Below, piece by piece: positions 7,431 through 29,083 of a stretch of 64,000 bases of DNA. The stretch comes from Candidatus Poribacteria bacterium (GTDB taxonomy: Bacteria > Poribacteria > WGA-4E > PCPOR2b), in contig OZ242326.1 of NCBI GenBank assembly GCA_965208325.1, positions 64,001 to 128,000 of the forward strand. Direction: 5' to 3'. The number at the start of each line of letters is the position of its first letter. Position 1 is the stretch's first letter. The translations under genes were made by a program, and so were the position numbers. The notes beneath the pieces are model-generated. The model had not been told where the DNA came from, did no database searches, and saw only the letters and a list, made by a program, of their open reading frames with translations.

Positions 7431-7456
7431 AATTATTAGAATGCGTCGTCCTGAAT

Positions 7457-7600
7457 CCTCCCGTTTACGAATGGGGAGTTGGAGGGGGTGATAACACGGT
7501 TGCAGCAATTCCACCGGGATGCCCAAATCGTAGGGGTTGGGCATCCCTATCCACTAAATGGCGTTTCCTACCCCTTACGAAGGGGACGTTAGCGGGGGTA
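7457..7600. repeat. REP-like palindrome cluster between arc and dop
   Basis: Perfect 11-bp IR GGGATGCCCAA (7516-7526)/TTGGGCATCCC (7537-7547); CCCCTT-acg-AAGGGG hairpin near 7571; G-rich tails like the repeat at about 18010. Confidence 0.55.
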
Positions 7601-7633
7601 GAATCACTTTTACGGACAGATCCGCACCAATGC

Positions 7634-9424
7634 CTAGATTACGTGAGTCGCGGTAGATTTTCTGCGGTTTGATTTTTCAGGGCGAAATGGGGTTACCTTG
7701 ACAACTTTCTCAGGGTCATAGTCGAGCAGTTTCAGCCAATCTTCCACACTATCCGTCGCCGGAAAAATTTCATTTTCGCGGTATTCTGCTGCAACTGCAT
7801 CCAGGAGATCGCCTGCACGAATCCCGACGCCATCATCACCAGGGGCATCAACTTCTTTAATGTGTTCGCTGCGTTCAATTGCCCTTTTGATTGCGGATTC
7901 TTTGGCACGTTGAATTATGGAAGCAATAATCGCACCATTACAAAGATCGCCCCGATACAACGTGTCACGACGACCGTTTTGCAAAACAACCTCTAAGAAC
8001 TTGTTACTTTCGGTGCGCTGAAACAGTTCGCTGCAGACCAAATCAAGGAGGTGCGAAACAGCGTCTTCTGAATTGCCGTTATGCGTTTCTAGCACTTCAG
8101 GATCGATTGGTAGATCTGACGCGAGATAAATGCGGGCGATTTCCTCCGCCCCTTCTTTATCCGGCCGCCTGACCCTTATCTTTCGGTCAATGCGTCCAGG
8201 GCGCAGAATCGCAGGATCGATAAGATCCGGGCGGTTCGTTGCGAGAATTATCACGACATCTTTCAGCGACTCGAGCCCGTCCATTTCGGCACAAAACATC
8301 GGTACAACCGTGTTTGAAATGTTATGGGAGCGGAAGGATCGGCGTGTTCCCAAGATGGACTCTGCTTCGTCAATAAAAACAAACGGTAGGAAACCCTCGT
8401 GCCGTTTTTCACGCGCAATCTGGAAGATTTCACGCACCTTGCGTTCCGATTCGCCAAGCCACATATTTAGAATTTCCGGCCCCTTGATGTGGAGGAAACA
8501 CCCTGTGACATCAGATCCTGTCTCTTGTCTCAATCGCTGCGTCAGATTGTAGGCCGTGGCTTTGCCAATGAGCGTCTTGCCGCAACCGGGAGGGCCATAC
8601 AACAGAAAACCCTTGGGAGGCGCATATTGGAAGCGATTAAAGAGGTCAGGGTAGAGAATCGGAAGCTCAATAGTATCTTTAATTAGTTGAATGGTATCAT
8701 TCAATCCTCCAATTTTCGTCCAAGGCACCTGTGGCACGTCTTCGAGGAAGTAATCTTTCACTTCTTTAACTTCAAGTCGTTCAAGCGCAACTCTAAAGTT
8801 TGCATCGATACGAATTTCTTCGTTCGCTTTGAGTTTTGCGTTGGCGAGATCGGTCGACCGGTTTAATACAACCGCCTGCAATCCATGTTCCTGCCCAACC
8901 CGTAGTCGGCCGTCAGGCATCACATCAACAATCTTACCAGTTGGTCCGGACTGGTTGTATCCTAGCTCGCCAACTACGACATACGCCTCGTTAAGCAGTA
9001 CACTGTAACCGATTTTGAGAGACGAGGGATCCATTTGTGGATGAAGGTTTGCAAAATACTCTGAACCGCCTACAATCACATGGGCAACATCTTTTTTCGG
9101 CAAGCCTAACAGTGTCCCAATTCGATTTGCGGGTGCCGTGAGTTTTTCAACGACCTGCTGCATCTCGACGATTGTCTGTCTCGCCTCTTGAAACGTCATT
9201 TCATCTTCCAGGATGGCACGCCGCAGTTCATACAGCAGCGGACGAATGCCGTCGTCTTCAGGGGTTGCGAAGATGAGTTGGTCGACTAACATCAGAGATC
9301 GAGGTAATCCTGCCGTATCCTCATCATCTTCCCCAATCTCTTCTTCAAAGTCGTCATTGTCGAATAATCGTATGCGCTCCTCGGATATTTTCTCATGCCG
9401 GTTAACATCTTTTTTGTTTTGCAT
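7634..9424 (-). CDS. arc: Proteasome AAA+ ATPase ARC/Mpa
   Basis: N-terminal coiled coil and OB domains; GPPGCGKT Walker A, FIDEAE Walker B, ATNRPDLIDPAILRPGRID SRH; first gene of the operon. Confidence 0.93.
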   Translation of the reverse strand: MQNKKDVNRHEKISEERIRLFDNDDFEEEIGEDDEDTAGLPRSLMLVDQLIFATPEDDGIRPLLYELRRAILEDEMTFQEARQTIVEMQQVVEKLTAPANRIGTLLGLPKKDVAHVIVGGSEYFANLHPQMDPSSLKIGYSVLLNEAYVVVGELGYNQSGPTGKIVDVMPDGRLRVGQEHGLQAVVLNRSTDLANAKLKANEEIRIDANFRVALERLEVKEVKDYFLEDVPQVPWTKIGGLNDTIQLIKDTIELPILYPDLFNRFQYAPPKGFLLYGPPGCGKTLIGKATAYNLTQRLRQETGSDVTGCFLHIKGPEILNMWLGESERKVREIFQIAREKRHEGFLPFVFIDEAESILGTRRSFRSHNISNTVVPMFCAEMDGLESLKDVVIILATNRPDLIDPAILRPGRIDRKIRVRRPDKEGAEEIARIYLASDLPIDPEVLETHNGNSEDAVSHLLDLVCSELFQRTESNKFLEVVLQNGRRDTLYRGDLCNGAIIASIIQRAKESAIKRAIERSEHIKEVDAPGDDGVGIRAGDLLDAVAAEYRENEIFPATDSVEDWLKLLDYDPEKVVKVTPFRPEKSNRRKSTATHVI

Positions 9425-15251: not shown

Positions 15252-15505
15252 GAAAAAAATCACCCCGAATAATCATTCGCCGAATTCTTCCGAAAAGGCG
15301 GCAACGAATACTGTGCTACGGCGCGTTACGGCTGGTCAATACAGGTCGGGGATTGGGGGTAAGCTTCTGTAGGTTGGGTAGATCAATCAACCGACCGAAC
15401 AGTCTTTGAAACCGAGTTTTTTATAGTTTGTATCAAATGACCCCATGAGTTAAACTGATAACAGATGTTATTTCCATCAATTACCATGAATCCATGGAGG
15501 TCATT

Positions 15506-16306
15506 ATGAAACCACAAAGTCATTCAAACTACGGTATCAATCGTCTGGAATCAAAGACGGCGAGAGCGGCAATTATTCAGAAGATTGCGTCAGACTTCAA
15601 TCTGATGCCTATCCTTGCCGAAGCCTACTATAATCAGATTTCTTCCTACTTTGCCCAACACGCCGATATTAAACTCACATCAGGCCAAATCTGCTATGAA
15701 GCCGTAGCCGCCGACGAACCCGCAGGTAAACACATTGCCTTAGCCAAAAAGGTCTCCTGCCAACTCACCCTCAATGATGTGCACACCGATCTTGAGGTGT
15801 TAGCCAACTATGGACTTGCAGGACTCAGACGACATCGAATCTTACGGTTAACCAAACAAGCCTATGACCAAGACGCTTTGCTCAGCTATGAAGATTTAGC
15901 GGTGCTATTAACCACCAGCCCGGCGACCGTCAAACGAGACATTCGACAGTTGAAACAGCAAGGGTTTTTTGTAATGACTCGCGGCGCCAAACACGACATG
16001 GGCCCCGGCATCTCTCATAAAACCCAAATCCTAGAACTGTACTTTAAAGGCTATCAATTCACCGACATTGAGCGAAAGACGAACCACACCGAACGCGCCG
16101 TGTTGAGATACTTGCGTAATTTCACTCAGGTAGCAACCCTCCATCATCAAGACTTTCCAAAGGAACAGATACGGCTCATCACCCATCTCTCTGACCGATT
16201 GATTCGTGAGTATCTCTCCCTGTATGATAAATACGAACATACAGAGCGAATGACGACTTTACTTCATCCTGAACCCGTTGATGAAAAAAAGGGGGAAAAC
16301 TCATGA
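15506..16306 (+). CDS. DUF1670 domain protein A (likely start 15506 after GGAGG)
   Basis: GQI...AV..DEPAGK, QAYDQDALLSYEDLAVLL, TRG..HDMGPGISHK and H...AV.RY motifs, recognised as DUF1670. Confidence 0.8.
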   Translation: MKPQSHSNYGINRLESKTARAAIIQKIASDFNLMPILAEAYYNQISSYFAQHADIKLTSGQICYEAVAADEPAGKHIALAKKVSCQLTLNDVHTDLEVLANYGLAGLRRHRILRLTKQAYDQDALLSYEDLAVLLTTSPATVKRDIRQLKQQGFFVMTRGAKHDMGPGISHKTQILELYFKGYQFTDIERKTNHTERAVLRYLRNFTQVATLHHQDFPKEQIRLITHLSDRLIREYLSLYDKYEHTERMTTLLHPEPVDEKKGENS

Positions 16307-17196
16307 GTAAATCATTGACTCGAACCGAAATCAACGAGAAGAAAATCAGACGTATCAATGATAAATCGTTGCGGCAGTTGCTGATTCATCGCTTTATCAA
16401 TTCCTATGGGTATGACAAAGGCGAAGTGACTGCCAAAGCCATTGTCGATGACATCGTCAAAACTATTGAAGACTATTTCCTGATTCGCTTGCCACTTGAT
16501 AAACTCGCCGCTGGAGAACAACTTCCTGATGAACGAATGCTTAGCTATGGTCAACTGGTTTGGATGGCTGTGCCGATTGACGAATATCCACAGAGAGCCA
16601 AGTCAATCGTTAAAACCCGCATGAAGCCTGTGGTTTTAAGCTTTGTGGCCCCCGAGGACATTGAACACTATTACAGCGGCTTCAGCTCTCGTGAACTCAG
16701 AATTCATCGATTGGTGCGATGGTGTTATCAAGCCTATGACCAAGGGGCATTGTTGACTCAACTAGACCTGGCTGTGTTGCTCAACGTCCGCGACCCAGTA
16801 GTGAGTGAGTATGTCAACGAGTGGCAAAGCACCAGTGGAAAAATCTTGCCCACTCGCGGCAACATTCACGATTTATCGGCGGCAATTACACACAAGAAGG
16901 AGATTATTACCCTTTATCTACAAGGGCACCTGACTCCGACCATTGCTGCCAAAACCAAGCACTCCAAAGAAGCTGTTGACCGATACATCCATGATTATGA
17001 GTCCGTTAAGATTGTTCGCACCGCTACCGATGACATTGACAAAATCTCTCAGATTACCAAACTTTCCAAGCGCGTCATCTCTCAATATCTCGACCTAATT
17101 CCTCAACATTCGCTGAATGACATCAACGCAAACTTGGAAGACGGCAAAGATAACACCGTGCCGTCCAGTTCCAAACCTACAGGAGACTTGCAATGA
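16303..17196 (+). CDS. DUF1670 domain protein B (paralogue, ATGA-coupled to A)
   Basis: GQLVWMAV, QAYDQGALLTQLDLAVLL, PTRGNIHD..AITHK and HSKEAVDRY motifs. Confidence 0.8.
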   Translation: MSKSLTRTEINEKKIRRINDKSLRQLLIHRFINSYGYDKGEVTAKAIVDDIVKTIEDYFLIRLPLDKLAAGEQLPDERMLSYGQLVWMAVPIDEYPQRAKSIVKTRMKPVVLSFVAPEDIEHYYSGFSSRELRIHRLVRWCYQAYDQGALLTQLDLAVLLNVRDPVVSEYVNEWQSTSGKILPTRGNIHDLSAAITHKKEIITLYLQGHLTPTIAAKTKHSKEAVDRYIHDYESVKIVRTATDDIDKISQITKLSKRVISQYLDLIPQHSLNDINANLEDGKDNTVPSSSKPTGDLQ

Positions 17197-17465
17197 CAGC
17201 ATACGCCTATTATTGCTTAGACATGGGAAAACAACGTCTCTTTCTTTGGCATCGGCTTGGCACGCCATAGCCATTTTGGTATACTTTGTCACGCTTCTAG
17301 CCAAACCAAATGAATTTCTTGACGGATAAGCTAATTAAGCCAACATAACTCGCTCATTTGATGATGGCTCGAAGTCAGTAACCACGCGCATTCCAACTAT
17401 CATCAGGTCATTTGATACTATTTTCTTCAAAACTCGGTTTCTTAATCGCAGCAAAACCTGTACTT

Positions 17466-18460
17466 TAGCCCCAGCGGGGCGGCAGGTATATAGAAAACAC
17501 AGTAACCCAATCCCCAAAGCCCCAGATGAGAATCAACCGACCGAATAGAGAGGGATCAACTGAGCGGATAGCGAAGGCGATAGTCTTCTCAAGTTATTAT
17601 AGTTCTTGTAGGTTGGGTAGAGCGGATTCATCCAAAAACATCCATGAAAACGAACCGCCCTGTCAACCGCAACACGTACAAAATTCGAGGCTTGTAGCGA
17701 AACCCAACGCTTTTAAAACCTCACCCATCCCAATTGATTACCAAACACCAACACCGCTGCTAATCCCGGACAACCCTTTTTCCATGAACCTACCCCCAAT
17801 GGTTAAACAATCATGCTTGTCCAATAAGGTGTAAGTGCTAGGAAATCCGGCTACGCTTCATAACCGAATGATCATGTGCGCTCTTAATCATCGCCCATCA
17901 TTCAATCAAAAAAATCACAGTTCAGACAGTTCTTGTAGGTTGGGATTAATTCAGCGCCTAGATCAACCGACTGTATAAGGCGCGCAATAGCGTTTTTGCA
18001 ATCTCAATTCCCCTCCTTACCAAGGAGGGGATAGGGGAGGTTATAGGACGGATCAGCTCAGCGCACAAGGAGTGCAATAGTCTTGGTTCTTAAAGTTCGA
18101 ATCTCGCCGTGGAACCTACTCCCGAAAATCTCGAATCCACCCCCGTCGGAGCGATCTCCGAATCGCGAAACATACCCTCATAATCACAGTCCATTCATTT
18201 AATCATATAAATCACAGTTCAGACAGTTTTTGTAGGTTGGGTAGAGCGGATACACCGAAACATGCCCATTATAACGAACCGCTCTGTAAGCTGAATGTAT
18301 GCAAGATACGCTGGATGCAGCGAAACCCAACGCTTTTATAACCTCCGCCCCTCCAAAAACGTCGGGTTTCAGTGAAGACTATGAGTAAATTATCGCTCTC
18401 CCTGCTCGGTCGGTTGATCCGTCGCTATTCGCTCAGTTGTTCGTTCTACAAAACCTACAA
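17466..18460. repeat. Dense REP/REPIN-like repeat patch
   Basis: About 115-bp diverged units TGTAGGTTGGGTAGAGCGGA...AACGAACCGC...AGCGAAACCCAACGCTTTTA at 17607 and 18231, with an inverted partner ending CTACAAAACCTACA at 18459; AATCACAGTTCAGACAGTT twice; CCCCTCCTT-acc-AAGGAGGGG at about 18010; GCCCCAGCGGGGC at about 17469. Confidence 0.8.
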
Positions 18461-18681
18461 AACCCACCATTTTCTGATTGCGAATTCCCCCTTTTTGGGT
18501 TATTATTCTGGCAGACATTTATTCATGACTCCCCTGCAAGAGACACTCGGCCTGGTGGTCAATTAACACTTGGCTTGGGTGTTGCGGTTCCTCTACTCAA
18601 CGTGAGCATCCCAGTGGAGCCATGATGCCGAAAATCGCTAACCGCTAGTAACTGAACAATACGTCTAGGCGATCAAGAACA

Positions 18682-21600
18682 ATGGCAAATAAAAAACCAC
18701 GAAAACGACGCAAAAAAGCAAACCTGCAAGCAAACCCCAAGCGGCAAGCATACGATCCGCTAAGGGGATACCGCTATCAAATATTGCACAGCGTACACGC
18801 TTGGTTGGGCCTTTCTGAAGATCAGGACCTCTATCTGGAATGTGCGGGAGATTTTGACACGATATCAGATGATGTTGCTACGGCAGTGCAGGTCAAAGAC
18901 ACGAAACACAACATCACGCTCAGATCTCAAGAAGTAACTGATGCAATCAACAACTATTGGAAATTGCGAGCGGACAACCCCGATAGGCGTGTGAAATTCC
19001 GTCTTCTCACACGATCCAAGATAGGCACGGAACGCGGAAACCCGTTTGGAGAGGGTAAATCGGGGCTTCACGTGTGGGGTCGCTGTGCAGACGATGAAGC
19101 AACTATCACGGAACTCTCTAAATTTCTGCAGTCAGATGAAAAAATTACAGATGACGTGAAGAACTTTCTAAAAAAATCAGATTCCAAAGAAATCTACGAA
19201 AAGCTCATTGAACCTATTTCTTGGGAAACGGGCAGCAAACCCGCTAGTTATGTTGAGCAATCTATACATGACAAACTAGTTCTTCACGGGAATCAACTCG
19301 GTTTCTTACCTTCTGAAGCCAAAAAAGTTGTTGATCCGCTAATCCAAGAAGCTTGGAAGGTAGCAACGCAAAAGGCAAACCGCGTTCTCACCAAAACCCG
19401 ATTCCTCGAAATTTTCGAGAAACAGACTACACAAATAGTCTCGACCCAGTATTTGCGGCATCTGCAAATGCAGGTCGCTACCATGAGTAATGTTGGCACT
19501 CCCTTTATAGGTGACCCAACTGATATATCAATTCAATCTCACTCTTCTATACTGAAAACAATACCGCCGCTCTATCCTGATGTAACTTCAAGAACCAGTT
19601 TGCTTGCAAGCATTCATGCTAAACTTCTTTCAGAGGGGATAGTTGTCATTCACGGCGGAGCAGGAAGAGGAAAGACAACACTCGCAAAATTAACCGCAAA
19701 GGAGACAAGCGAATCATGGTTTTGGCTGAATCTAACTAATAGAGAGCCGTCTCAAGTAGTCCACCATTTACAACAACTCACTATTGAAATCAGTAATCAA
19801 CCCACACCAGTCAACATCGCCCTTGACGATCTGAATTTACAACCCCAGCAGTTACGGAGGTATGAAGAAATCTTGGGAGTAGTGGTTTATAGAGTGTTTG
19901 AGCGTGGTGCAAAAGTGCTGATTTCAAGCCAACATGAACCCCACGACAATCTCACCCGCCAACTCGGTGTATCACGGTCAGTGGCTGTTGATGTGGGTGA
20001 CTTTTCGCTATCTGAAATTGAGCAATTTGCAAAACAGTTGGGGTGTCCTGCTGAAGACGCAAAAAAATGTGCACAGGTAGTCCTGTGGCATACAAGTGGA
20101 CATCCGAGACTTGTACACGCTCGACTCGCTCGACTACGGCAAGATAACTGGACTCGACCAGATATAATCGAAAGCATGGTGCAAACACCCGGAGAGGTAT
20201 TGGACGAACGGGAAGCCGCGCGACAATTGCTCGTAGAGTTGCCAGACGATCAACAGGAATTTCTCTATAGACTTAGCTTGTTGCCTATGCCTTTCCGGAG
20301 AGATTGCGCGCTCTACATCGGCGAGATAACAAAACCTATCCCTTTTTCAGGAAATATTTTCAGTCAACTAGTCGGTCCTTGGATAGATCAAATTCATAAA
20401 ACCTACTACACAATTTCACCTTTATTGACTAATGCGGCCAAGCAGATTTGGCCAGAAAAAAAGATAAACGACCTTCACGCTCAAATCGCAGAGGCAATCC
20501 TCGAATCGACAGATCTGACCAAAATAGAAGCACGGGCTGTGCTCTATCATAGTATGCTCGGACAGAACGAGCTAGGCTTTTTTGTTGTGATTCAGGCATT
20601 GATGACCGCTCCAGAGCACCATTGGAAAGAACTTAGCCATGAATTCTCGTGGTTGATACATCTTAAAACTGATTCTCGCGGAATGTTATTTCTTCAGAAT
20701 CCCGTTGTGAATAATCTCTTTCGCTCACTCCAACATCGTATTGCGGTTGAGGTCGAACCAGAGGCTGCACCAAAGATACTTGAAAATTGGGATAAGAAAG
20801 TTGTGCCATACGAGCCGGACCATTTGTATCACCTAGATCGCCTAATGCTGGCACAGCAGGCATTGACGTATGGCCAATCGTCACTTTCAGCCAAAAAGAT
20901 AGTAGGCTATCTCAAAGAGATTATCGAAATTACAAAAAAACATAAAGAATTCTTAGAATCAGATGATGATTCGACGGGAAAGCTTAAAGGATATAAAACC
21001 GATAAATCTAACTTTTTCAGCCTTCTAGTTGGCTTTATTTGTGCTCGTCGTCCAATTTACGCTCCGTTTCTCAGCAGCCTTATTGGCGAGTTGGATGAAC
21101 TTCAACCGGAAAGTCGGACTTTATTATTGGCTGATTTCGAGGATGATACCATTCACTCTCGAGTTCTCATGGATGGTATATGGGAATCGGAGGCGAACCG
21201 CGAAAATCCGGATTGGACAAGATGTTTTCAGGTATTAGACAAAGCAATTGAACGAACTATCGCTTGGGGTTATCCCCATCTCGCTGCTGCATCAGCAAGG
21301 TGTAAAGCCATGATCCATGATGAATGCTTACATGATGCCGATACGGCCCATAAAATTCTTCAGGATATAATATTAAAAGTGGGGCAATTTCCGGTGCTAG
21401 AAGAAGCAATAGCAGCCATATATTTGAATCAGGGACGCTATAAGGAAGCACTCAATATTTATGAGCGAATTCTTCCCGACTGGAATCCACCGTCGGGACA
21501 GTTGGATGTTATGCCTCCAGAAGGTTGTCGTCGCGCCGCAATTTGCGCCGCAAATTTGGGCGATTGGGGTAAAGCCGCCGCCTTTTTTGTAGATGGAGCT

Positions 21601-22959
21601 AATAGAACTCGTGAGAACACCGAAAGACATATCGGGTTTTATGCGGATGCGGGATATGCGCAATTCAAGGCCGGTTATTTCCTAGATAGCATAAGTCTAT
21701 TGAAACGGGCGTTGCAAACATTTGAGATACTTCAGCAAAACAATGGACATGACAGGTATTTTACTATAAAGCGACGTTTAGCGTACACTTTGAAATGGAT
21801 GACAGAGCAAGAGGGTGAATTTAGATCCTCAGAACTTGTAGAACCCCCGGTGGGTTTCTGCACCAATCCGGAGACAGATGAAGGTGTTTCATCTCTGCCT
21901 GATTTTTCAATCGCGTACGCTTGGCTTTATCTAGCGCAGATTGAATACAACTTTGGTCATGGAACAGAGGCTTTAGAGCACGCCGTGGACGTCATGGACG
22001 GTGATGAATGTCCCAACTTAGATTTCATTCGCGCTTTCGCGGAAACACAAAAAGATTTTAGAAACAAAACCTTTGATGAACTGCCACAACGAATAAATCA
22101 ACTAGTGATTGCGTGTGACTTAGTACAGAGTCATATCAAGAGTGCGAAGGGACTTGAAGAACAACGAGACAAAAATTTGCCTAGTGTAAATCCTCCCAAT
22201 TTCGCTTCTGTTGCGAACATCACCACTATGTTAGTAGCCGCACTGCTTGTTCAAATGTGGACTAACTCAGGTATGCATAGTGTTCTAGCAACATGGCGTA
22301 GAAATTCAGCGGAACTACCCATCCAAGAAAACATGTTCAGTGTTCTCGATCTGATTGAATCCATGTTATCCAGAGACCAAAAGCACGCGTTGGATGTAAT
22401 GAGAACGCAAGGAGCCAAATATGAAAAACGGCTTGTGGCAACATTAAAGATTCTCAATAGTAACAAAACGAGCCCGGAAATTCTCTTCCATGCACATGTG
22501 CTCATCACGACAGCTTTCATTGGTCAGCTGTATGAAGGATATGTCATCCAGGACTTAGCTGAATCTCTTTCTGCACAATGGCTAGAAAAAACTAGAGCGC
22601 CCGGAATTTTGCAAATGCCAAGGATTACGGTCCCTGAGATAGAACGTGCTTGCAAGGGGAGTGAGTCTGCGAAGAAAAAAATTGGCAAAATTCTCCTCGC
22701 CGCACAACAAGCTGTCTCAATAAGGGTGTCGACTGAAACCGTACAGCAGTTTCGTAATTGGGCAGAATCGGAATCAAGCGCGAAACAGGAACCGAAAACA
22801 GCAAAAAATCCGATAGCACAACGCCTAATCCGCGCGATGGAAAAACCGCCGCATCTCACCCATGAAGACGTTGAAACGCTGCGTCAATCAATCGAAGAAG
22901 GTAAAATTCCTGTAAAATTCGACTCGCCTTTTGAGCCGGATGAATCTGAAAAGCAATGA
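18682..22959 (+). CDS. Avs-like STAND NTPase: N-terminal Cap4/DUF4297-like PD-(D/E)xK nuclease, P-loop, TPR-like repeats, short antitoxin-like C-terminal tail
   Basis: LRGYRYQ...LYLE..GDFD...AVQVK nuclease motif; GGAGRGKT Walker A; IALDD Walker B; TSGHPRL (GxP); helical repeats. Confidence 0.75.
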   Translation: MANKKPRKRRKKANLQANPKRQAYDPLRGYRYQILHSVHAWLGLSEDQDLYLECAGDFDTISDDVATAVQVKDTKHNITLRSQEVTDAINNYWKLRADNPDRRVKFRLLTRSKIGTERGNPFGEGKSGLHVWGRCADDEATITELSKFLQSDEKITDDVKNFLKKSDSKEIYEKLIEPISWETGSKPASYVEQSIHDKLVLHGNQLGFLPSEAKKVVDPLIQEAWKVATQKANRVLTKTRFLEIFEKQTTQIVSTQYLRHLQMQVATMSNVGTPFIGDPTDISIQSHSSILKTIPPLYPDVTSRTSLLASIHAKLLSEGIVVIHGGAGRGKTTLAKLTAKETSESWFWLNLTNREPSQVVHHLQQLTIEISNQPTPVNIALDDLNLQPQQLRRYEEILGVVVYRVFERGAKVLISSQHEPHDNLTRQLGVSRSVAVDVGDFSLSEIEQFAKQLGCPAEDAKKCAQVVLWHTSGHPRLVHARLARLRQDNWTRPDIIESMVQTPGEVLDEREAARQLLVELPDDQQEFLYRLSLLPMPFRRDCALYIGEITKPIPFSGNIFSQLVGPWIDQIHKTYYTISPLLTNAAKQIWPEKKINDLHAQIAEAILESTDLTKIEARAVLYHSMLGQNELGFFVVIQALMTAPEHHWKELSHEFSWLIHLKTDSRGMLFLQNPVVNNLFRSLQHRIAVEVEPEAAPKILENWDKKVVPYEPDHLYHLDRLMLAQQALTYGQSSLSAKKIVGYLKEIIEITKKHKEFLESDDDSTGKLKGYKTDKSNFFSLLVGFICARRPIYAPFLSSLIGELDELQPESRTLLLADFEDDTIHSRVLMDGIWESEANRENPDWTRCFQVLDKAIERTIAWGYPHLAAASARCKAMIHDECLHDADTAHKILQDIILKVGQFPVLEEAIAAIYLNQGRYKEALNIYERILPDWNPPSGQLDVMPPEGCRRAAICAANLGDWGKAAAFFVDGANRTRENTERHIGFYADAGYAQFKAGYFLDSISLLKRALQTFEILQQNNGHDRYFTIKRRLAYTLKWMTEQEGEFRSSELVEPPVGFCTNPETDEGVSSLPDFSIAYAWLYLAQIEYNFGHGTEALEHAVDVMDGDECPNLDFIRAFAETQKDFRNKTFDELPQRINQLVIACDLVQSHIKSAKGLEEQRDKNLPSVNPPNFASVANITTMLVAALLVQMWTNSGMHSVLATWRRNSAELPIQENMFSVLDLIESMLSRDQKHALDVMRTQGAKYEKRLVATLKILNSNKTSPEILFHAHVLITTAFIGQLYEGYVIQDLAESLSAQWLEKTRAPGILQMPRITVPEIERACKGSESAKKKIGKILLAAQQAVSIRVSTETVQQFRNWAESESSAKQEPKTAKNPIAQRLIRAMEKPPHLTHEDVETLRQSIEEGKIPVKFDSPFEPDESEKQ

Positions 22960-23372
22960 ATAAGTATCTTCTGCAGACATCTACGTGCAGCGCTTTGATG
23001 GAAGATTCCCCGGCAGTTATCAAGCGTTTGAATTCTCTAACCGAGGCGGACTATCTATTTACTTGCCCGATCGTAAAAGAAGAGATTTTATACGGAATTA
23101 TTCGCCTCCCTGCAGGAAAAAGACAACGAGATCTGCAACAAAAGGCAAATGAACTGTTTGCTCAAATTCCCTGTGAACCAATCCCAGATAATGTTGCCGA
23201 TTTCTATGCAAAGATAAAAGCTGCGGCTGAACGACAAGGAACGCCATTAGATGAATGTGACCTTTGGATTGCTGCGACAGCTCTTGCGCTTGACACAATT
23301 CTGGTTACTTCTGATTCCGACTATGGAAGAATAGCGGGGCTAGGATTGCGCCTGGAAAATTGGGTCATTTAA
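22956..23372 (+). CDS. vapC: PIN-domain (VapC-like) toxin
   Basis: MNKYLL(Q)TS, I..EEI.YG, D..DLWIAATA and LVTSD.DY motifs; ATGA overlap with the upstream gene; first acidic residue replaced by Gln. Confidence 0.85.
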   Translation: MNKYLLQTSTCSALMEDSPAVIKRLNSLTEADYLFTCPIVKEEILYGIIRLPAGKRQRDLQQKANELFAQIPCEPIPDNVADFYAKIKAAAERQGTPLDECDLWIAATALALDTILVTSDSDYGRIAGLGLRLENWVI

Positions 23373-23422
23373 CATACAGCTAACTGCTAACCAATAGCCA
23401 CTGCCCTCAAGGAGTTTTACCA

Positions 23423-25036
23423 ATGCCCACACTCGATTTCAAAGGAAAACAACACATCTACGCCCACCATCTCACTGTCCCCTACCAGCCGCTTGAACCA
23501 GACGAGTCTCGCTCTTGCAACCCGAACGGAACCGACGACAATCTAATCATCCACGGCGATAACCTAAAGGCGCTCAAAGCCCTGTTTCCCCGCTACGCGA
23601 ATCGAGTCAAGTGTATCTACATTGATCCGCCCTACAATACCGGCAATGAGGCCTGGGTATATAACGACAACGTAAACAGCCCGCTAATGCAGCAGTGGCT
23701 CGGGGAGATTACCCCTGTTGACAACGAAGACCTTGAACGGCATGAGAAATGGCTTTGTATGATTTGGCCACGGTTACACCTGCTCAAAGAGTTGCTTGCC
23801 GAAGATGGAGTAATTTTTGTCTCAATCGACGACAACGAGCAACACCATCTGCGAATGCTAATGGATGAAATTTTCGGGGAAAAGAATTTTGTTGCTAACA
23901 TCGTGTGGCACCACCGGAAATCCAGCCAGAATGATATAGACGTTTCTCTTTCCCATAACCACATACTTTGCTATGCGCTTGAAAGGTCTTCCTTTTCTTT
24001 CAACGCTGGCGACATTGATGAAAGCAAATTCTCCAATCCTGATAACGATCCTCGTGGTCCATGGGTAGCAGATCCAATGGACGCACCCAATATCAGGGAA
24101 AACTTGACATACGAAATCATCAATCCCAACACGGGTAAAGTTTATCTTCCTCCCGCTGGCAGATGTTGGAGATTTTCAAAAGAGAGATACGATGATGCAT
24201 TAAAAGAAAGTCGAATTTTGTTTGGACGGCGAGGGACTTCTAAACCCCAATATAAGCGTTTTCTCAGTGAAGCCCGCGAAAGGGGAGTCAACATCTTTAC
24301 AATATGGAGCGATGTAGGGACAGCTACCGATGGCACAAAGGAATTTAATCGTATTTTTGGACGCGAACAATCTTTTGCAACCCCAAAACCGACCGATTTA
24401 ATTGCAAAAATAATTAGGGTATCCACATCGAAAGATGACATTGTTCTCGACTCTTTTGCCGGCAGCGGGACAACCGCACACGCTGTTCTAGAATTGAACA
24501 AAGAAGATGGCGGTAACCGCAAATTCGTCCTCGTTGAATGCGAAGATTACTCCGACACCATCACTGCCGAGCGGGTACGCCGTGTCATCAACGGTGTTTC
24601 AAACGCCCGCAACGCATCACTACGTGAAGGATTAGGCGGCTCTTTCACCTACTGTACGTTGGGTGAACCGATGAATATGGAAGGGATGCTCACCGGTGAC
24701 GCGCTGCCTGCGTTTGAATCCCTCGCTGCTTATCTGCTGCACACCGCCTCTGGAGTTACATGTGGCGCCGGTCAGTTGACCCCGAAAAACGATGATGGCC
24801 TATTTCACACGGGAGACAGAACCGACTACTATATGCTCTACAAACCCGATTTAGAATTCCTGCGCAGTAATGAGTCAATGCTCACCCAAGATCGGGCGGA
24901 ACGCATACGGGACGCCAGTTGCCACAATGGTAAAAAGGCAACCGTTTATGCTCCGGGCAAATACATTAGCCAGAAAGATCTTACACCCATGGGAATTACA
25001 TTCTGCCAAATTCCGCATGCCTTGCACGAAAGATAA
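23423..25036 (+). CDS. mod: Type III R-M methyltransferase (Mod)
   Basis: IHGDNL, IYIDPPYNTG, SIDDNE, TPKP and LDSFAGSGTT (beta-class order). Confidence 0.92.
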   Translation: MPTLDFKGKQHIYAHHLTVPYQPLEPDESRSCNPNGTDDNLIIHGDNLKALKALFPRYANRVKCIYIDPPYNTGNEAWVYNDNVNSPLMQQWLGEITPVDNEDLERHEKWLCMIWPRLHLLKELLAEDGVIFVSIDDNEQHHLRMLMDEIFGEKNFVANIVWHHRKSSQNDIDVSLSHNHILCYALERSSFSFNAGDIDESKFSNPDNDPRGPWVADPMDAPNIRENLTYEIINPNTGKVYLPPAGRCWRFSKERYDDALKESRILFGRRGTSKPQYKRFLSEARERGVNIFTIWSDVGTATDGTKEFNRIFGREQSFATPKPTDLIAKIIRVSTSKDDIVLDSFAGSGTTAHAVLELNKEDGGNRKFVLVECEDYSDTITAERVRRVINGVSNARNASLREGLGGSFTYCTLGEPMNMEGMLTGDALPAFESLAAYLLHTASGVTCGAGQLTPKNDDGLFHTGDRTDYYMLYKPDLEFLRSNESMLTQDRAERIRDASCHNGKKATVYAPGKYISQKDLTPMGITFCQIPHALHER

Positions 25037-25048
25037 AGTGATGCTGCC

Positions 25049-27604
25049 ATGATGGAACTGAAGACGTATCAGACCCGCGCGCTTGACGCTTTTAGTCAAT
25101 GGTTAGATACGCTTAAAACAGCGCGGCATCAGTCGGAAACTGCGGTTAAATCATGGCCCGCAGCTGCCGGCGGTATTCCTGATGCGGTGAAAAATTATCC
25201 GCGGCTGGCGTGGGAGACGCTTAAAGAGAGCGGAGGGCTCGCGCATAGTGCGGCGCCGTATGTAGACCGCACCGACGAAGCAAACTCTCCAATTCCGCAC
25301 ATCTGCTTCAAAATCCCAACAGGCGGCGGCAAGACCCTCCTTGCGGCTTCTGCGCTTGAACGTCTCAATCGGCAAACCGGTTTGACATTGTGGGTTGTAC
25401 CGACCAAGGCAATCTACGCGCAGACAAAAACTGCACTGTGGAATCGGGAACACCCGTATCGTCAAACCCTAGAGCGCGCGAGTGCGGGCAGAGTCAAAAT
25501 GTTGGAAAAGGACGACGAGTTCAGCCGAGACGACATCGCAAACTACCTTTGTGTCATGCTGCTCATGTTGCCAGCAACCAACCGGCAACGAGGAAGAGAG
25601 TTTCTGCGCATGTTTCGGGATTCGGGGCGTTATCCCAGCTTCTTCCCCGAAATCGACGATGTGTTTAGAGATGCTCGCCTGCAAATCGATCATCCCGATC
25701 TGGACTGTCATACCGCACCAGGTCCCGTCAAGCATAGCCTTTTTAACGTGTTCAAGCTACTGCGTCCAGTCGTGGTTCTTGATGAGGCGCATAAAGCCTA
25801 CGGTTCTAAGACCAGGTCCGCCAACGAAGAGTTTGCCCGTTCAATCTCACGCCTAAATCCACGTCTCGTAATTGAACTCTCCGCAACGCCCAACCGTGGT
25901 ATCAGCAACTTGCTTGTTGACATTGACGGCCCCGATCTCAAGAAAGAGGAAATGATTAAGCTGCCGGTGCAGGTCACGTCATTTCCGAATGCGGAGTGGC
26001 AATTAACGTTGAGTCAGGCTGTCGAAGAGTTAGAACAATTAGATGCCGAAGCAAAATCGCTAGAGAGCAATACAGGGCGTTACATCCGACCAATCGCCGT
26101 TGTCCGCGTCGAAAACACAGGTGCGGCTCAGATTGGTGGAGATAATATCCATGCTGAAGATGTACGGCAAAATCTCGAACACAATTTACATGTGCCCTCG
26201 GAGGCAATTCGTGTGAAATCCGCTGAAAAGGATGAGCTTGGCAAGGAAGATTTGCTCTCCGAGATTTGCCCGGTGAAATGGATCATCACAAAATCGGCAT
26301 TGATGGAAGGTTGGGATTGTCCATTCGCATACCTACTGGTGATGCTGGACAACACGCAGGCACAAAGGGCGATTACGCAGCTCGTCGGTAGAGTCATGCG
26401 GCAACCGCACGCGCAACTCACCGGACGGGTATCACTCGATCAGTGTTACGTCTATTGCCATAACGCAGCCGTTGGCGAGGTCGTCCAACAGGTCAAAAAT
26501 GGTCTGGAAGCAGAGGGCCTCACTGGCTTGGGCGATGAAGTGCTAAGCACGGCAGGTGAGGGGCAACCGGACGCCATTCGGAAAACCGTTGAACGGCGAA
26601 CGCAGTATAGAGGTAAAGACATCTTTCTGCCGCTGGTGTTGCATTTAAATGGCGCGGATTGGATTCAACTGGATTATCAGCGTCATATTCTGCCGCACAT
26701 TGACTGGGTGGCAATCGCAGCGCCAGATCCTCGCAAATCTGCACCCGCCGTTGCAAGTCGCCAAGACGCAACGGTCGACCTTGACGATTTGCCGCCAATG
26801 TATCACGCCGACCAAGACCTTCACATTGACAAAACGGTTCGTGTATCCGACTTCGCACGCCATCTTTCCGACATTGTACCGAATCCGTGGCACGCCGCAC
26901 GTATAGCACAAGGTCTAATTGACCGCCTCAAACAGGCAGGCGAGTCGAAGGATAATATCTATGATCGCCGCGCCTATCTTACACAAGTGCTGCGAGAGCA
27001 TGTAAGGGATGAAGTGGAAGCGCAGGCGGAGCGTGTTTTTCAGGAGAAGTTGAACGGTGGAGAAATTCGGTTTGATTTAGAGACTGAAGAACCGAATTAC
27101 AGAATGGTAGGAAATTATGAAATTTTTGTTGCGGACAATGATACACTTCTTACTAGAAAGAGCTATGAACCATTACAGTTAAGTCTGTTTGAACCAGTTT
27201 TCGTAAGCCAATTCAATGAGTTGGAAATGAGTTTTGCTCGTTATCTGGACGAGCAGAAGGCGTTGAAATGGTGGCATCGTGTCGCTGCACGTCAAAAGGG
27301 GGAATACTACCTGCAAGGCTGGAAACAAGGGCGCATTTACCCGGACTTTGTAGCACTTGCAAGTCGCGGCGATGATGAGAAACGGGTACTAATTTTCGAT
27401 ACAAAAGGCGAACACCTCAGCGGAAACCGGGATTCGGAATACAAGAAAAAAGTGCTGGAAACACTCGAAGGCGCGTTCAATGCCGTGGGAAAGGTAAAAG
27501 TGCGTGAGGGCACTACAATTACGGGAGTTTTTGAGTTGGTATTTGAAAAACACGCCGACACCGATTTCGCAGAGCTAACCCCGCGGCTGTCTGGAGAACT
27601 TTAG
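25049..27604 (+). CDS. res: Type III R-M restriction subunit (Res; SF2 helicase plus PD-(D/E)xK)
   Basis: PTGGGKT, DEAH, LSATP, EGWDCP, Q.VGR.MR and C-terminal YPDF....DTKG; directly after mod. Confidence 0.9.
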   Translation: MMELKTYQTRALDAFSQWLDTLKTARHQSETAVKSWPAAAGGIPDAVKNYPRLAWETLKESGGLAHSAAPYVDRTDEANSPIPHICFKIPTGGGKTLLAASALERLNRQTGLTLWVVPTKAIYAQTKTALWNREHPYRQTLERASAGRVKMLEKDDEFSRDDIANYLCVMLLMLPATNRQRGREFLRMFRDSGRYPSFFPEIDDVFRDARLQIDHPDLDCHTAPGPVKHSLFNVFKLLRPVVVLDEAHKAYGSKTRSANEEFARSISRLNPRLVIELSATPNRGISNLLVDIDGPDLKKEEMIKLPVQVTSFPNAEWQLTLSQAVEELEQLDAEAKSLESNTGRYIRPIAVVRVENTGAAQIGGDNIHAEDVRQNLEHNLHVPSEAIRVKSAEKDELGKEDLLSEICPVKWIITKSALMEGWDCPFAYLLVMLDNTQAQRAITQLVGRVMRQPHAQLTGRVSLDQCYVYCHNAAVGEVVQQVKNGLEAEGLTGLGDEVLSTAGEGQPDAIRKTVERRTQYRGKDIFLPLVLHLNGADWIQLDYQRHILPHIDWVAIAAPDPRKSAPAVASRQDATVDLDDLPPMYHADQDLHIDKTVRVSDFARHLSDIVPNPWHAARIAQGLIDRLKQAGESKDNIYDRRAYLTQVLREHVRDEVEAQAERVFQEKLNGGEIRFDLETEEPNYRMVGNYEIFVADNDTLLTRKSYEPLQLSLFEPVFVSQFNELEMSFARYLDEQKALKWWHRVAARQKGEYYLQGWKQGRIYPDFVALASRGDDEKRVLIFDTKGEHLSGNRDSEYKKKVLETLEGAFNAVGKVKVREGTTITGVFELVFEKHADTDFAELTPRLSGEL

Positions 27605-28226
27605 TCATTCTTCATTTTGCCGGTCGCGAATCGTTGACCCCGTGTTTGTAAAGCCCATTTACTGTAACTGCGCTGACCTTATGATAACTTCCACTGTTGG
27701 CGCCTACCGGGCTAATACACAAATCTATAGTCATGGGCGAAACCAATTACTTCATTACGAAGCTAGGTCACGAGTACATTTCTAAGCACAAATCAAAGCA
27801 AAAACCTCTGCGCGAGAATGACACATCTGAGTAGCAATTCTTGGGGTGAAATGTACTGCCCGAACCAAACATACCACCCATTTAGCGATAGCGCCCTGCC
27901 ATATCCTACACTACCGATTTCCGATTCTATAAACCGTGCCAACACGGAGACATGCCCGGAAACGATAGTGAGCAAAATAGCATTTTCATAGACATTTTCG
28001 CGCGTTTGCCTTTTTCGGTCTAAGAACATTGCGTTGGAATTCGCAATGCACTCCTACCTACCATCCACCCCTCCTGTTTCCATGACTTCTGGCGGCTAAT
28101 CCAAATCCTCAATTTACCCGCAAACCAAATTAATCAAAGCTCCGCCAAAATCAAAATTGTATTCGTTAAATGTCAGGTCCTGCCGAGGCGACAAAGATGA
28201 AGCATCTGAAGTACCCGGAACAATTT

Positions 28227-28270
28227 AACATGTTAAATCTGTTAAATTTTGTAAACTTTTGTAAACTTTT
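28227..28270 (+). repeat. Array of four 9-10-bp TGT(T/A)AA repeats, copy 1
   Basis: tgttaaatc-tgttaaattt-tgtaaacttt-tgtaaacttt; the block recurs at 28422-28461. Confidence 0.75.
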
Positions 28271-28379
28271 TCAAGGAATTCACTGTCCTCGAAAATCGAA
28301 CGGCGGAACCGCTAAGAGATCCCATACATGTTAAGAGCAGGGCAGTGACCCCACCGCCAAAAAAAATTTGCATTTTTCT

Positions 28380-28461
28380 TTGACATCGTGACTAACCGTT
28401 ATGTATAGTTTTAAGCGTGATAACATTTGTTAAATCTGTTGAGTTTTGTAAAATTTTGTAA
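28380..28461 (+). promoter_or_regulatory. Sigma70-like promoter followed by operator-like repeat array (copy 2), upstream of an HTH gene
   Basis: TTGACA (28380-85), about 17-18 nt, TATAGT; tgttaaatc-tgttgagttt-tgtaaaattt-tgtaa sits between the promoter and the GGAGG RBS. Confidence 0.6.
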
Positions 28462-28477
28462 TGGAGGTTAACTGGCT

Positions 28478-29083
28478 ATGCCTACCAAAACTGAACTGAA
28501 ACAACGTGAAGCCATTTCACTCTTTCTGACTGGCAAAACCGAAACCGAGGTAGCCGAAGCCATTGGCGTATCTCGCCAAACGATTTGGAAATGGAAGAAG
28601 GAAACAGATTTTAATCACGATATTGTCGAGGCAGGCGAGTGCATTCTCGCGGAACATACATTGGCAGTTTCAAGTCTCGTAGACGAATCACTCGGCGTCA
28701 TGTCCGAACTGCTAAAAAGTGATGACGAGAGCATACGGTTCAAAGCCGCAACGACCATCCTAAACTCCGCCAGCAATTGGCGCGCGCAGCGTCCCGCAGC
28801 CCCGGGTCACAAAACGGCTGAAAGCGAACTCCACGAAACCCAAGTTGACGCCATTATGCAGATCGAGCAGTGGAAAGTACAATTCACAAAGCAAGGTGGC
28901 AAGCCGGATGATTTCACGATGTGGTTGTTGCAAGGAATGCCCGAAATTAAAGGCAATGGCGCGGAGGCCGCGAAGTCCAACGAACCAGCAAAACCGGATT
29001 CGGTAAAGGCGAAATCAGCAAAAAACGGCGGCTTGAAGAACGGCGGTATTTCAAATCTAAAAAATTCCCGCCAAAAATCATGA
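28478..29083 (+). CDS. HTH DNA-binding protein (phBC6A51/terminase-small-subunit-like N-terminus)
   Basis: KQREAI..F.TG.T.TEVAEAIGVSRQTIWKWKK..DF, then a helical region with S.RFKAA..IL; GGAGG RBS. Confidence 0.65.
   Translation: MPTKTELKQREAISLFLTGKTETEVAEAIGVSRQTIWKWKKETDFNHDIVEAGECILAEHTLAVSSLVDESLGVMSELLKSDDESIRFKAATTILNSASNWRAQRPAAPGHKTAESELHETQVDAIMQIEQWKVQFTKQGGKPDDFTMWLLQGMPEIKGNGAEAAKSNEPAKPDSVKAKSAKNGGLKNGGISNLKNSRQKS

Follow-up and report, generated by a model that had tools for sequence, protein, structure and literature searches.

Why should an NTPase of the STAND type, with a nuclease domain at its N-terminus, end in what looks like an antitoxin, and why should its stop codon overlap the start of a PIN toxin gene? 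This arrangement is found in a 64,000-nucleotide stretch of DNA from “Candidatus Poribacteria” (contig OZ242326.1, positions 64,001 to 128,000 of the forward strand), which is referred to below as the window. The same arrangement physically joins a putative immune sensor to a toxin-antitoxin (TA) pair in many related species and touches on two open questions, namely, how an infection switches TA systems on and how NLR-like sensors come by their effectors.

Domain Organization of the STAND-Tail Protein

The STAND-tail gene comprises the following features (positions are those of the window).

18682..22959, + strand: STAND-tail open reading frame (ORF), 1425 aa, with the order nuclease, NTPase, helical/TPR region, linker, VapB-like tail
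18739..19458, + strand: DUF4297/Cap4/LmuA-type PD-(D/E)xK nuclease domain, aa 20-259 (Pfam, PADLOC, family profile)
19582..20121, + strand: STAND P-loop NTPase core, aa 301-480, with Walker A (19654-19680), Walker B (19825-19830), and a GxP motif
20602..22764, + strand: C-terminal helical region, presumed sensor, aa 641-1361 (weak TPR matches)
22765..22803, + strand: variable polar linker, aa 1362-1374 (identity 0.47)
22804..22956, + strand: predicted VapB-type toxin-binding tail, core at aa 1375-1417 plus an acidic end

The 1425-aa ORF, the Cap4-like nuclease, the STAND P-loop, and the helical repeats reported in the first-pass annotation are all recognizable from Pfam and PADLOC matches and sequence motifs, with the Pfam matches to TPRs (at 885-932) all falling under the cut-off. 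The window protein is 56 to 77% identical to its 120 nearest homologues. Within an alignment of 14 family members, the nuclease residues E53, D57, Q70, and K72 are invariant, as are the Walker A (G325-T333), Walker B (D382 D383), and GxP (G473 H474 P475) motifs of the NTPase; residue E56 of the nuclease is replaced by Gly in the window copy only. The Pfam model Cap4_nuclease matches residues 28-164 with 24.1 bits, slightly under its 26.2-bit cut-off, and PADLOC finds LmuA (2.2e-10) and DUF4297 (3e-05) in the N-terminus of the window protein. Across the family, DUF4297 matches all 14 members and LmuA matches 13 of them, and the family profile of the nuclease matches solved DUF4297 chains (8xav, E = 0.0024; 9c1m, E = 0.0039). 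The nSTAND3 model matches 13 of the 14 members weakly (best E, 1.6e-05); other weak matches of the NTPase are to NACHT and NB-ARC. Mean pairwise identity in the helical region is 0.58 to 0.65.

The first description of this protein as Avs-like holds for its architecture: like Avs and other bacterial NLR-like proteins, it is tripartite, and its gene lies in a defense island. However, PADLOC found no match to any Avs model in the window protein at E <= 0.1 or in the 14 members at E <= 0.01, the nuclease matching DUF4297/LmuA instead. The protein further differs from Avs in its VapB-type tail and coupled PIN gene and, in some relatives, in an N-terminal DUF4926 domain, none of which is described in the Avs literature that was searched. 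The nuclease domain, with its conserved E..D...QxK residues, is homologous to those of the DUF4297-HerA and Lamassu systems but is fused here to a STAND NTPase. Lamassu combines LmuA with the SMC-like ATPase LmuB and with LmuC; among the 8 neighboring proteins scanned with PADLOC, there was no HerA, LmuB, or LmuC, so that the resemblance to Lamassu is confined to the nuclease domain.

The Tail as an Antitoxin-Type Module

The tail, whose sequence is exactly as given in the first annotation, contains the best-conserved segment of the protein: identity in its core is 0.79, versus 0.58 to 0.66 for other segments. On its own, it matched no Pfam, PADLOC, or NCBIfam model, and solved structures offered no credible likeness, the best matches being a repeat artefact and a ParD-like chain with an E value of 1.1. 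The tail shares 56 to 88% identity with many small proteins (70 to 88% with the 120 small proteins listed among 152 hits). Comparison of the tail with the last 60 residues of classical antitoxins in hhalign gave 99.6%, with an E value of 2.1e-24. The same module forms the C-terminal end of representatives of the DUF4926, AF2212-like, DUF433, HicB-like, and RHH proteins, and the antitoxin relatives of the tail include RHH-, AbrB/AF2212-, HicB-, DUF433-, and DUF2281-type proteins, with the DUF2281 matches falling under the Pfam cut-off. The PIN subfamily encoded in the window is found behind such antitoxins in 6 of 7 metagenome loci; the antitoxin and PIN genes overlap by 4 nt in 5 of 6 pairs, and the PIN is 49% identical to that of the window. 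Judged from these sequence comparisons, identification of the tail as an antitoxin-type module is supported.

The tail had been likened at first to small stand-alone proteins encoded upstream of PIN genes. This is borne out by the homologous antitoxin C-termini and by the metagenome loci just mentioned, but many of the “stand-alone” tail proteins of this phylum are split-off or collapsed remnants of the same STAND gene and have no PIN. The antitoxin element of the window lacks an N-terminal DNA-binding domain (RHH, AbrB, HTH, or Phd), its place before the tail being taken by the STAND protein, and thus there is no obvious means of autoregulation. A search of viral contigs revealed no relatives of the tail and hence no hint of a phage-borne mimic.

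Tails accompanied by a PIN show a dN/dS of ~0.11 (0.114), versus 0.135 to 0.143 for those without one, a comparison that is confounded by shared history. The proposal that the tail is useless without a PIN is not supported by these values, which indicate purifying selection on PIN-less tails, too. Together with the clean ATGA start of tails that have been split off from the STAND frame, this suggests that the tail may do more than silence an adjacent PIN.

The PIN Gene and Its Junction with the Tail

22956..22959, + strand: ATGA stop/start overlap of 4 nt, predicted translational coupling of the PIN to the tail
22956..23372, + strand: VapC-type PIN toxin gene, 138 aa
22974..22976, + strand: CAG codon for Gln7, which occupies the first catalytic acidic site of the PIN (alignment with homologues and VapC structures)

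The overlap with a vapC-like gene and the lack of a separate vapB were correctly recognized in the first-pass annotation; the window contains no small ORF between the STAND-tail ORF and the PIN gene. Overlap between the start codon of the PIN gene and the stop codon of the tail ORF, by 1, 4, or 8 nt, is likewise seen in 40 of 42 related loci. The product matches the PIN domain PF01850 over the cut-off (E = 2.8e-15), NCBIfam VapC models under their cut-offs, and the solved chains of VapC (6nkl, 3zvk) and FitB (2h1o).

Position 7 of the PIN aligns with the first Asp of VapC. It is Asp or Glu in all 23 homologues compared and Gln in the window copy, which also carries a G42E substitution and retains E43, D102, D120, and D122. 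Thus, a complete acidic active site is present in orthologues from other species but not in the window PIN, and the two substitutions suggest that this PIN may be inactive and that the pair may no longer be toxic in this genome. Contigs of two public runs (Logan; X1 and X2) have no differing letter in the Gln7 codon and 0 differences from the window over positions 22600-23276. These runs may come from the source sample of the assembly; the host organism is uncultured.

Distribution of the Fusion

The survey covered 176 Poribacteria species genomes, which, being related, are not independent samples for the counts that follow. PIN matches of at least 205 bits have a tail directly upstream in 57 of 58 cases, and the sole exception has a broken tail remnant, whereas 84 of the 150 tails listed have no PIN of at least 176 bits behind them. 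Such an imbalance is what one would predict for a toxin paired with its antitoxin.

The association between fusion and PIN was counted on 56 STAND genes (57 matches). There are 29 full-length genes fused to the tail, 25 of them followed by a PIN; the 7 full-length split genes and 8 full-length tail-less ones have none (0/15). Among 11 truncated fused genes, 9 have a PIN. Overall, of the 35 genes with a PIN, 34 carry a tail in frame with the STAND part. The tail-fused form is also found in 62 of the 120 nearest protein clusters. Therefore, the view that the fusion is peculiar to this assembly and the alternative raised in the first-pass annotation, an accidental joining of an Avs gene to a vapBC locus, can both be set aside; sequence comparison supports a fusion that is neither unique nor accidental. 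Two further proposals failed. The STAND family is not confined to Poribacteria, as an untailed homologue was found in 5 of 151 sampled genomes of another phylum, and the TA pair does not appear to shield the STAND ORF from truncation, with 10 of 35 genes truncated in the presence of a PIN versus 2 of 21 in its absence.

Intermediate forms exist in some variety: split, tail-less, collapsed in frame, deprived of the PIN, or capped at both ends. The linker region is the junction at which split forms carry a stop codon, a new ATG, and a 1-nt deletion. Decayed STAND genes keep the tail in frame; thus, protein P0124 consists of residues 15-76 followed by the tail and is a relic of an in-frame collapse, and the DUF4926-tail proteins correspond to the first ~100 aa and the last 51 aa of a DUF4926-STAND-tail protein.

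Proposed Capture of a Toxin-Antitoxin Pair

We put at about 0.5 the probability that a nuclease-STAND-TPR defense gene has captured a VapBC-type TA pair at its 3' end. This reading starts from the observed homology, gene order, coupling, and comparative rules and adds three predicted elements: physical binding of tail and PIN, toxicity of the latter, and a trigger. The antitoxin, having neither a DNA-binding domain nor a start codon of its own, would exist only as the ~55 C-terminal residues of the 1425-aa STAND protein, to which a flexible linker would join it. VapC would be translated by termination-reinitiation at the ATGA overlap and thus only after a tail has been made. The tail would bind and silence the PIN, leaving it tethered to the STAND protein. 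While the PIN is active, loss of tail translation through a frameshift, a stop codon, or un-fusing would be lethal, whereas fusing would be a viable one-step change, so that the fusion would act as a ratchet. Such a ratchet would make the fusion persist, restrict the PIN to loci with an in-frame tail, and cause decaying STAND genes to collapse in frame around the tail. It would be leaky once the PIN is lost, as suggested by at least 19 changes of tail state on a tree of 121 STAND bodies. The PIN would be a latent second RNase, freed when the full-length STAND-tail protein is no longer made or is turned over, for example, upon phage shut-off or loss of the island. The result would likely be an abortive-infection and island-stabilizing layer that supplements the nuclease of the STAND protein and the type III R-M system next to it. 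In evolutionary terms, if the sole antitoxin of a toxin is fused to a neighboring gene, the fusion would be irreversible as long as the toxin is active, a rule that could explain other odd domain fusions in defense islands.

A tentative alternative, which we consider possible though less than probable, is that the sensor itself controls the release: the helical/TPR region would sense a phage protein, NTP-dependent oligomerization would switch on the nuclease, and the tail would be stripped off or occluded, freeing the PIN as a second effector, one directed at RNA. This would fit the retention of the PIN by most full-length fused genes, the variable and polar character of the linker, as expected for a tether, and the invariance of the nuclease and NTPase motifs in PIN-bearing members, which indicates that the STAND part is functional rather than a passive carrier. 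A precedent is offered by the ternary ParA-TA “apoptosis” systems, in which an NTPase is proposed to reorganize the TA complex and unleash the toxin and which, according to the available part of the text, likewise combine an NTPase switch and a TPR-type sensor with a captured type II TA pair (bioRxiv 10.64898/2026.10.19.760177). In that part of the text, however, ParA serves as the NTPase, each of the three components has its own gene, the toxins named are not VapC, and the phrases “fused to the antitoxin” and “antitoxin fus” are absent, whereas here a STAND NTPase carries the antitoxin covalently. Against sensor-controlled release, the STAND protein exists without the PIN (19 full-length genes, 58 of the 120 clusters, and 3 full-length untailed copies in the other phylum), and the tail-PIN pair exists without an intact STAND protein, as small antitoxin-tail proteins paired with a PIN and as truncated STAND genes with a PIN. 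Plain dependence of a toxin on its antitoxin predicts every pattern seen; a conserved fusion need not mean functional coupling, and an addiction ratchet without any signaling appears to account for the comparative pattern equally well.

Relatives of the window gene suggest a broader version of sensor-controlled release, with antitoxin-type modules grafted onto both ends of the STAND protein. In the 176 genomes, 8 STAND genes have a DUF6883 gene immediately at their 5' end, and 3 of the 8 also have the tail and the PIN; in three loci (L021, L034, L045), the DUF6883 gene shares 4 nt with the beginning of a gene for a DUF4926-STAND-tail protein. The window copy has neither DUF4926 nor DUF6883. 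According to the available part of a preprint, DUF6883 (BECR-Tox3 RNase) pairs with DUF4926 as its immunity protein (bioRxiv 10.64898/2026.08.28.747851); in the relatives, by contrast, DUF4926 runs on into the whole nuclease-STAND-tail protein. By the same logic as the tail, DUF4926 at the N-terminus would hold the DUF6883 RNase, and the STAND protein would be a hub keeping latent RNase toxins on end-grafted antitoxin modules (VapB tail for VapC and, in relatives, DUF4926 for the DUF6883 BECR RNase) until phage-triggered oligomerization sets them free. We regard this as rather unlikely. If true, it would describe an NLR-like sensor that deploys complete TA pairs as releasable effectors and is integrated into a type III R-M operon.

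Association with Type III R-M Genes

23423..25036, + strand: type III R-M methyltransferase (Mod), MTase_III 1.8e-173 (PADLOC), N6_N4_Mtase (Pfam), conserved neighbor
25049..27604, + strand: type III R-M restriction subunit (Res), REase_III 3.1e-188 (PADLOC), ResIII (Pfam), conserved neighbor

Both components of a type III R-M system, the Mod methyltransferase and the Res helicase-nuclease, are thus encoded next to the PIN gene. In the wider family, Mod and/or Res adjoin the tail in 46 of 80 related loci, and most STAND loci have the order STAND-tail, PIN, Mod, Res, with a gap of ~60 nt between PIN and Mod. The 80 related loci contain no counterpart of the DUF1670 genes upstream of the window STAND gene or of the ORF at 17526..17834.

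The prrC gene sits inside the EcoprrI genes, and, by analogy, the STAND-tail/PIN module might serve the Mod-Res operon as a guard, providing a latent RNase as a backup that comes into play when a phage blocks or evades restriction. Beyond the conserved adjacency, this would agree with the placement of the module between Mod and Res in two loci (L016, L023), with the persistence of tail remnants beside Mod in four loci that have lost the STAND gene (L006, L018, L024, L074), and with the compact layout of the window, in which the gaps are 50 nt (PIN-Mod) and 12 nt (Mod-Res) and a promoter/terminator scan of positions 17000-28600 gave counts at or below the shuffled expectation, with no above-chance promoter-like site between the genes. 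However, adjacency is common in defense islands and need not mean interaction. Free tail-PIN pairs occur without an R-M neighbor (L002, L047, L071, L077-L079), and five complete STAND-tail-PIN loci (L026, L028, L029, L032, L035) have no Mod or Res within the flank fetched. A role in guarding the R-M system is improbable, and capture of a TA pair remains the preferred explanation.

TIR Proteins and the Tail

In four loci (L014, L017, L090, L091), the order is STAND, a separate tail ORF, a TIR protein (CAP12-like), Mod, and Res, and two proteins, P0231 (1735 aa) and P0279 (1766 aa), are STAND-tail-TIR triple fusions. Such cases would be expected if the tail were a general docking handle, rather than an antitoxin in particular, that brings the effector encoded by the next gene, be it PIN or CAP12-like TIR, to the STAND oligomer, where clustering would activate it; purifying selection on PIN-less tails points the same way. 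However, the TIR family is abundant and mostly found without a tail: by eye, only ~5 to 6 of ~45 near-full-length matches directly follow one of the tails listed. A TIR protein is also encoded upstream of the STAND gene (L003) and, in another phylum, behind an untailed one (L100). Thus, the tail as an obligate partner of the TIR protein was rejected, most TIR copies having none. Unlike the TIR protein, the PIN is almost always accompanied by the tail, and the relatives of the tail are the C-termini of classical antitoxins, all of which makes general docking quite improbable.

That the fusion results from a frameshift in the assembly or represents a decaying, functionless pseudogene could be argued from the private changes at conserved sites (E56G in the nuclease, Q7 and G42E in the PIN) but is largely refuted and very improbable indeed, given a 4.3-kb open frame, the same fused frame open in 29 other species genomes, the identical public-run contigs, and a number of private substitutions (26) so close to those of other members (e.g., 21 and 24) that decay of the window copy is not supported.

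Comparison with Other Toxin-Antitoxin Systems

CapRel(SJ46) carries toxin and antitoxin in one chain, and its antitoxin itself senses the phage. The STAND-tail protein resembles it in that an antitoxin element is covalently part of a larger defense protein, which would tie neutralization to the state of that protein, but differs in that the presumed sensor is an NTPase distinct from the antitoxin attached to it, with the toxin made as a chain of its own. In the literature that was searched, no STAND-antitoxin fusion was found and no paper joins VapB, STAND, NTPase, and TPR. The Poribacteria provide a natural case, recurring in dozens of species, of a covalent link between an NLR-like sensor and a TA pair.

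With classical VapBC, the system shares a PIN homologous to solved VapC proteins, an upstream antitoxin element with overlapping stop and start codons, and a toxin that almost never occurs without its antitoxin. In addition, the tail has homologues at the C-terminal ends of RHH, AF2212-like, HicB-like, and DUF433 antitoxins, which are encoded ahead of PIN genes of this subfamily. The system differs from VapBC in that the antitoxin is not encoded separately and lacks a DNA-binding domain, forming instead the C-terminus of a 1425-aa NTPase, and, in the window copy, in having Gln at the first catalytic acidic site of the toxin.

Layout of the locus

The gene for the STAND-tail protein overlaps that of a VapC-type PIN protein and is followed by a type III restriction-modification (R-M) operon, as listed here in window coordinates.

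18682..22959, + strand: open frame of 1,425 aa, STAND-tail protein
22956..23372, + strand: open frame of 138 aa, PIN protein
22956-22959, + strand: ATGA, in which the STAND-tail TGA overlaps the PIN ATG
23423..25036: type III R-M methyltransferase, Mod (PADLOC, 1.8e-173)
25049..27604: type III R-M restriction subunit, Res (PADLOC, 3.1e-188)

No separate small gene lies between the STAND-tail and PIN frames, and the gaps between PIN and Mod and between Mod and Res are 50 and 12 nt. The G+C content is 0.43 to 0.47 across ~15 to 24.5 kb of the window, 0.50 to 0.53 across Mod and Res, and again 0.43 to 0.46 at 27 to 29 kb, with flanks at 0.49 to 0.57. The left flank carries housekeeping genes (Pup ligase, proteasomal ATPase, a DNA polymerase III alpha homologue, and SRAP), the right flank carries a transposase-like HTH gene, and the genome is a single 4.71-Mb contig. 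Pup-proteasome genes (Pup ligase and proteasomal AAA ATPase) are found at 5910-9424 in a member of Poribacteria. Directly upstream of the island, a tandem pair of DUF1670 genes carrying HTH motifs (15494-17196) has no counterpart in 80 related loci.

The STAND protein

The Cap4-like nuclease and STAND P-loop proposed in the first-pass annotation are borne out. Residues 20 to 260 form a DUF4297/Cap4/LmuA-type nuclease, which scores 24.1 bits against Pfam Cap4_nuclease, slightly under the cut-off, and 2.2e-10 against the PADLOC LmuA model. Among 14 aligned family members, the DUF4297 model matches all 14 and LmuA 13; residues E53, D57, Q70, and K72 do not vary, and the family profile recovers the solved DUF4297 chains 8xav and 9c1m. 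In the NTPase (residues ~301 to 480), Walker A, Walker B, and the GxP motif are invariant, and nSTAND3 is a weak match in 13 of the 14 members; the remainder is helical, with TPR matches under the cut-off. None of the 14 members matches any PADLOC Avs model, so the earlier term “Avs-like” holds for the architecture but not for membership. Look-alikes found in an atlas search comprise the protein's own untailed family and clusters combining NB-ARC/AAA_22 with TPR.

The tail as a probable antitoxin module

A search with just the C-terminal 64 residues matches 152 small proteins, 120 of them listed at 70 to 88% identity. An exhaustive HMMER search found 72 representatives bearing the tail, whose ~55 residues are always C-terminal, preceded by DUF4926, AF2212-like, DUF433, HicB-like, or RHH domains or by a TPR block (DUF2281 matches in this position stay under the cut-off). 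The tail profile matches the C-terminal 60 residues of these antitoxins with 99.6% probability (E value of 2.1e-24, 43% identity). In 6 of 7 metagenome loci located via distant tail-bearing antitoxins, the next gene encodes a PIN of the same subfamily, 49% identical to that of the window, with a 4-nt overlap in 5 of the 6. The likeness to small proteins upstream of PIN genes proposed in the first-pass annotation is supported. Conservation across the STAND protein peaks in the tail core, where mean pairwise identity is 0.79; the domains reach 0.58 to 0.66 and the preceding linker 0.47. The tail core also has a dN/dS of ~0.11. No solved structure resembles the tail.

In 176 Poribacteria species genomes, 58 PIN matches score 205 bits or more, and 57 of them directly follow a listed tail match; the exception (in genome G104) retains just the last 19 tail residues behind a stop. 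Conversely, 84 of 150 listed tails have no PIN of at least 176 bits behind them, a count that does not extend to PIN matches under that score or to the 51 tails not listed. In PIN-less loci, remnants of the start of PIN are seen, or Mod is joined on directly. A putative toxin almost never without its antitoxin, and an antitoxin often orphaned, is the pattern that a toxin-antitoxin pair predicts. That the tail is the cognate VapC-neutralizing module is well supported, with a probability of roughly 0.85.

Fusion, splitting, and decay

The nearest 120 protein clusters of the STAND body share 56 to 77% identity with it. The tail is present in 62 of them, 2 of which continue into a TIR protein, and the other 58 stop exactly where the STAND body ends. 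On a tree of 121 STAND bodies, the tail state changed at least 19 times, versus 40 on average, and never fewer than 29, with shuffled labels. In the 176 genomes, the STAND C-terminal region has 57 matches from 56 genes (one is in two pieces), which were crossed with tail and PIN positions; these genomes are related, not independent, and the split cases fall in three genera.

Table. States of 56 STAND genes (genes; with PIN)
Full-length, tail fused: 29; 25
Full-length, tail as a separate ORF: 7; 0
Full-length, no listed tail: 8; 0
Truncated, tail fused: 11; 9
Frameshifted (genome G110): 1; 1

The PIN neighbor is thus kept by 25 of the 29 full-length fused homologues, and PIN is confined to genes that have the tail in frame with STAND (34 of 35 PIN-bearing genes). 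Simple decay does not account for the split form. The same TGA stop, new ATG (ATGA overlap), and 1-nt deletion restoring the tail frame occur in loci L014, L017, and L072; L039 reached the split state by another route.

Truncated STAND genes retain the C-terminal piece, tail, and PIN in L004, L020, L029, L032, and other loci, and the 130-aa protein P0124 joins nuclease residues 15 to 76 in frame to the tail. Many “DUF4926-tail” proteins of 140 to 165 aa correspond to the first ~100 and last 51 residues of DUF4926-STAND-tail proteins (77 and 84% identity, respectively), take in the start of the nuclease domain, and look like in-frame internal deletions. A lock shielding the STAND gene from truncation is not visible, as 10 of 35 PIN-bearing genes are truncated versus 2 of 21 PIN-less ones.

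Modules at the other end and neighboring genes

Some STAND homologues carry DUF4926 at the N terminus. In three loci a DUF6883 gene (PF21814, E values of 1e-29 to 1e-30; L021:1226-1648, L034:1319-1669, and L045:1331-1681) overlaps the start of the DUF4926-STAND-tail gene by 4 nt, and PIN overlaps its end, which places antitoxin-type modules at both STAND ends and two toxin genes on the flanks. In a 2026 preprint, DUF6883 is proposed to be a BECR RNase toxin that has DUF4926 as immunity partner (bioRxiv 10.64898/2026.08.28.747851). By manual comparison of positions, DUF6883 abuts the 5' end of 8 STAND genes in the 176 genomes, 3 of which also have tail and PIN. The STAND gene of the window has neither DUF4926 nor DUF6883.

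The tail adjoins Mod and/or Res in 46 of 80 loci, most commonly in the order STAND-tail, PIN, Mod, Res; the STAND-tail and PIN module of L016 and L023 lies between mod and res rather than upstream of both. A CAP12-like TIR protein occupies the post-tail slot in L014, L017, L090, and L091, replaces PIN behind a separately encoded tail in several loci (e.g., L014:6181-7122), and lies upstream of STAND in L003. Since this TIR family is abundant and most copies are tail-less, the adjacency is treated as positional. In two proteins, P0231 (1,735 aa) and P0279 (1,766 aa), STAND, tail, and a CAP12/Pycsar-type TIR protein are fused into one chain.

Of 151 genomes sampled from another phylum, 5 have untailed STAND homologues (48 to 51% identity), one of them with the TIR gene behind it. 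Others there are followed by unrelated pairs of small genes that, by eye, resemble TA pairs: AbrB-like and PIN-like ORFs in one locus (L101:2350-2999) and a further pair in another (L102:2402-3010). TA pairs may recur behind STAND genes.

Possible roles of the fusion

Beyond the probable antitoxin role of the tail, two readings fit everything observed. The slightly favored one is an addiction module with its antitoxin locked onto the STAND C terminus, from which PIN would be freed once STAND-tail synthesis stops. Fusion would be a single viable step and its reversal would pass through an antitoxin-less state, which would yield both the restriction of PIN to fused tails and the in-frame relics. 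Alternatively, STAND activation might release PIN, and in relatives also DUF6883, as further effectors. This reading is kept alive by the grafting of antitoxin-type modules on both STAND ends and by the precedent of ParA-TA ternary systems, the nearest idea in print among the texts searched (October 2026 preprint, bioRxiv 10.64898/2026.10.19.760177); however, STAND and tail-PIN each occur without the other, which tips the balance slightly toward the addiction module. An accidental fusion, also considered in the first-pass annotation, is at odds with a tail on 62 of the 120 nearest clusters and 29 full-length fused genes in 176 genomes.

These proteins with an antitoxin-type tail are nameless or “hypothetical protein” in public records, and full-text literature searches turned up no STAND or Avs protein described as bearing such a module. 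NLR-like STAND proteins and VapBC, which the locus combines, are known kinds.

The window copy

Position 7 of the window PIN, the aligned counterpart of the first catalytic Asp in VapC, is Gln (CAG, 22974-22976), versus Asp or Glu in all 23 homologues compared; the codon is the same in contigs of two public runs, which may be the source sample. PIN also carries G42E (23079-23081; Gly in 23 of 23), and the nuclease motif region carries E56G (18847-18849; Glu in the other 13 aligned members), with E53, D57, Q70, and K72 intact. Private changes are not clearly more numerous than in other members. In this genome the toxin may have lost its catalytic activity, and PIN orthologues are better test objects. 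A second, ordinary pair lies elsewhere in the same genome (G000:C1:446739-447322, locus L002), where a 111-aa tail-bearing protein and a PIN form a coupled unit. This PIN has Glu at position 7 and shares 59% identity with that of the window; the two pairs could cross-neutralize in either direction.
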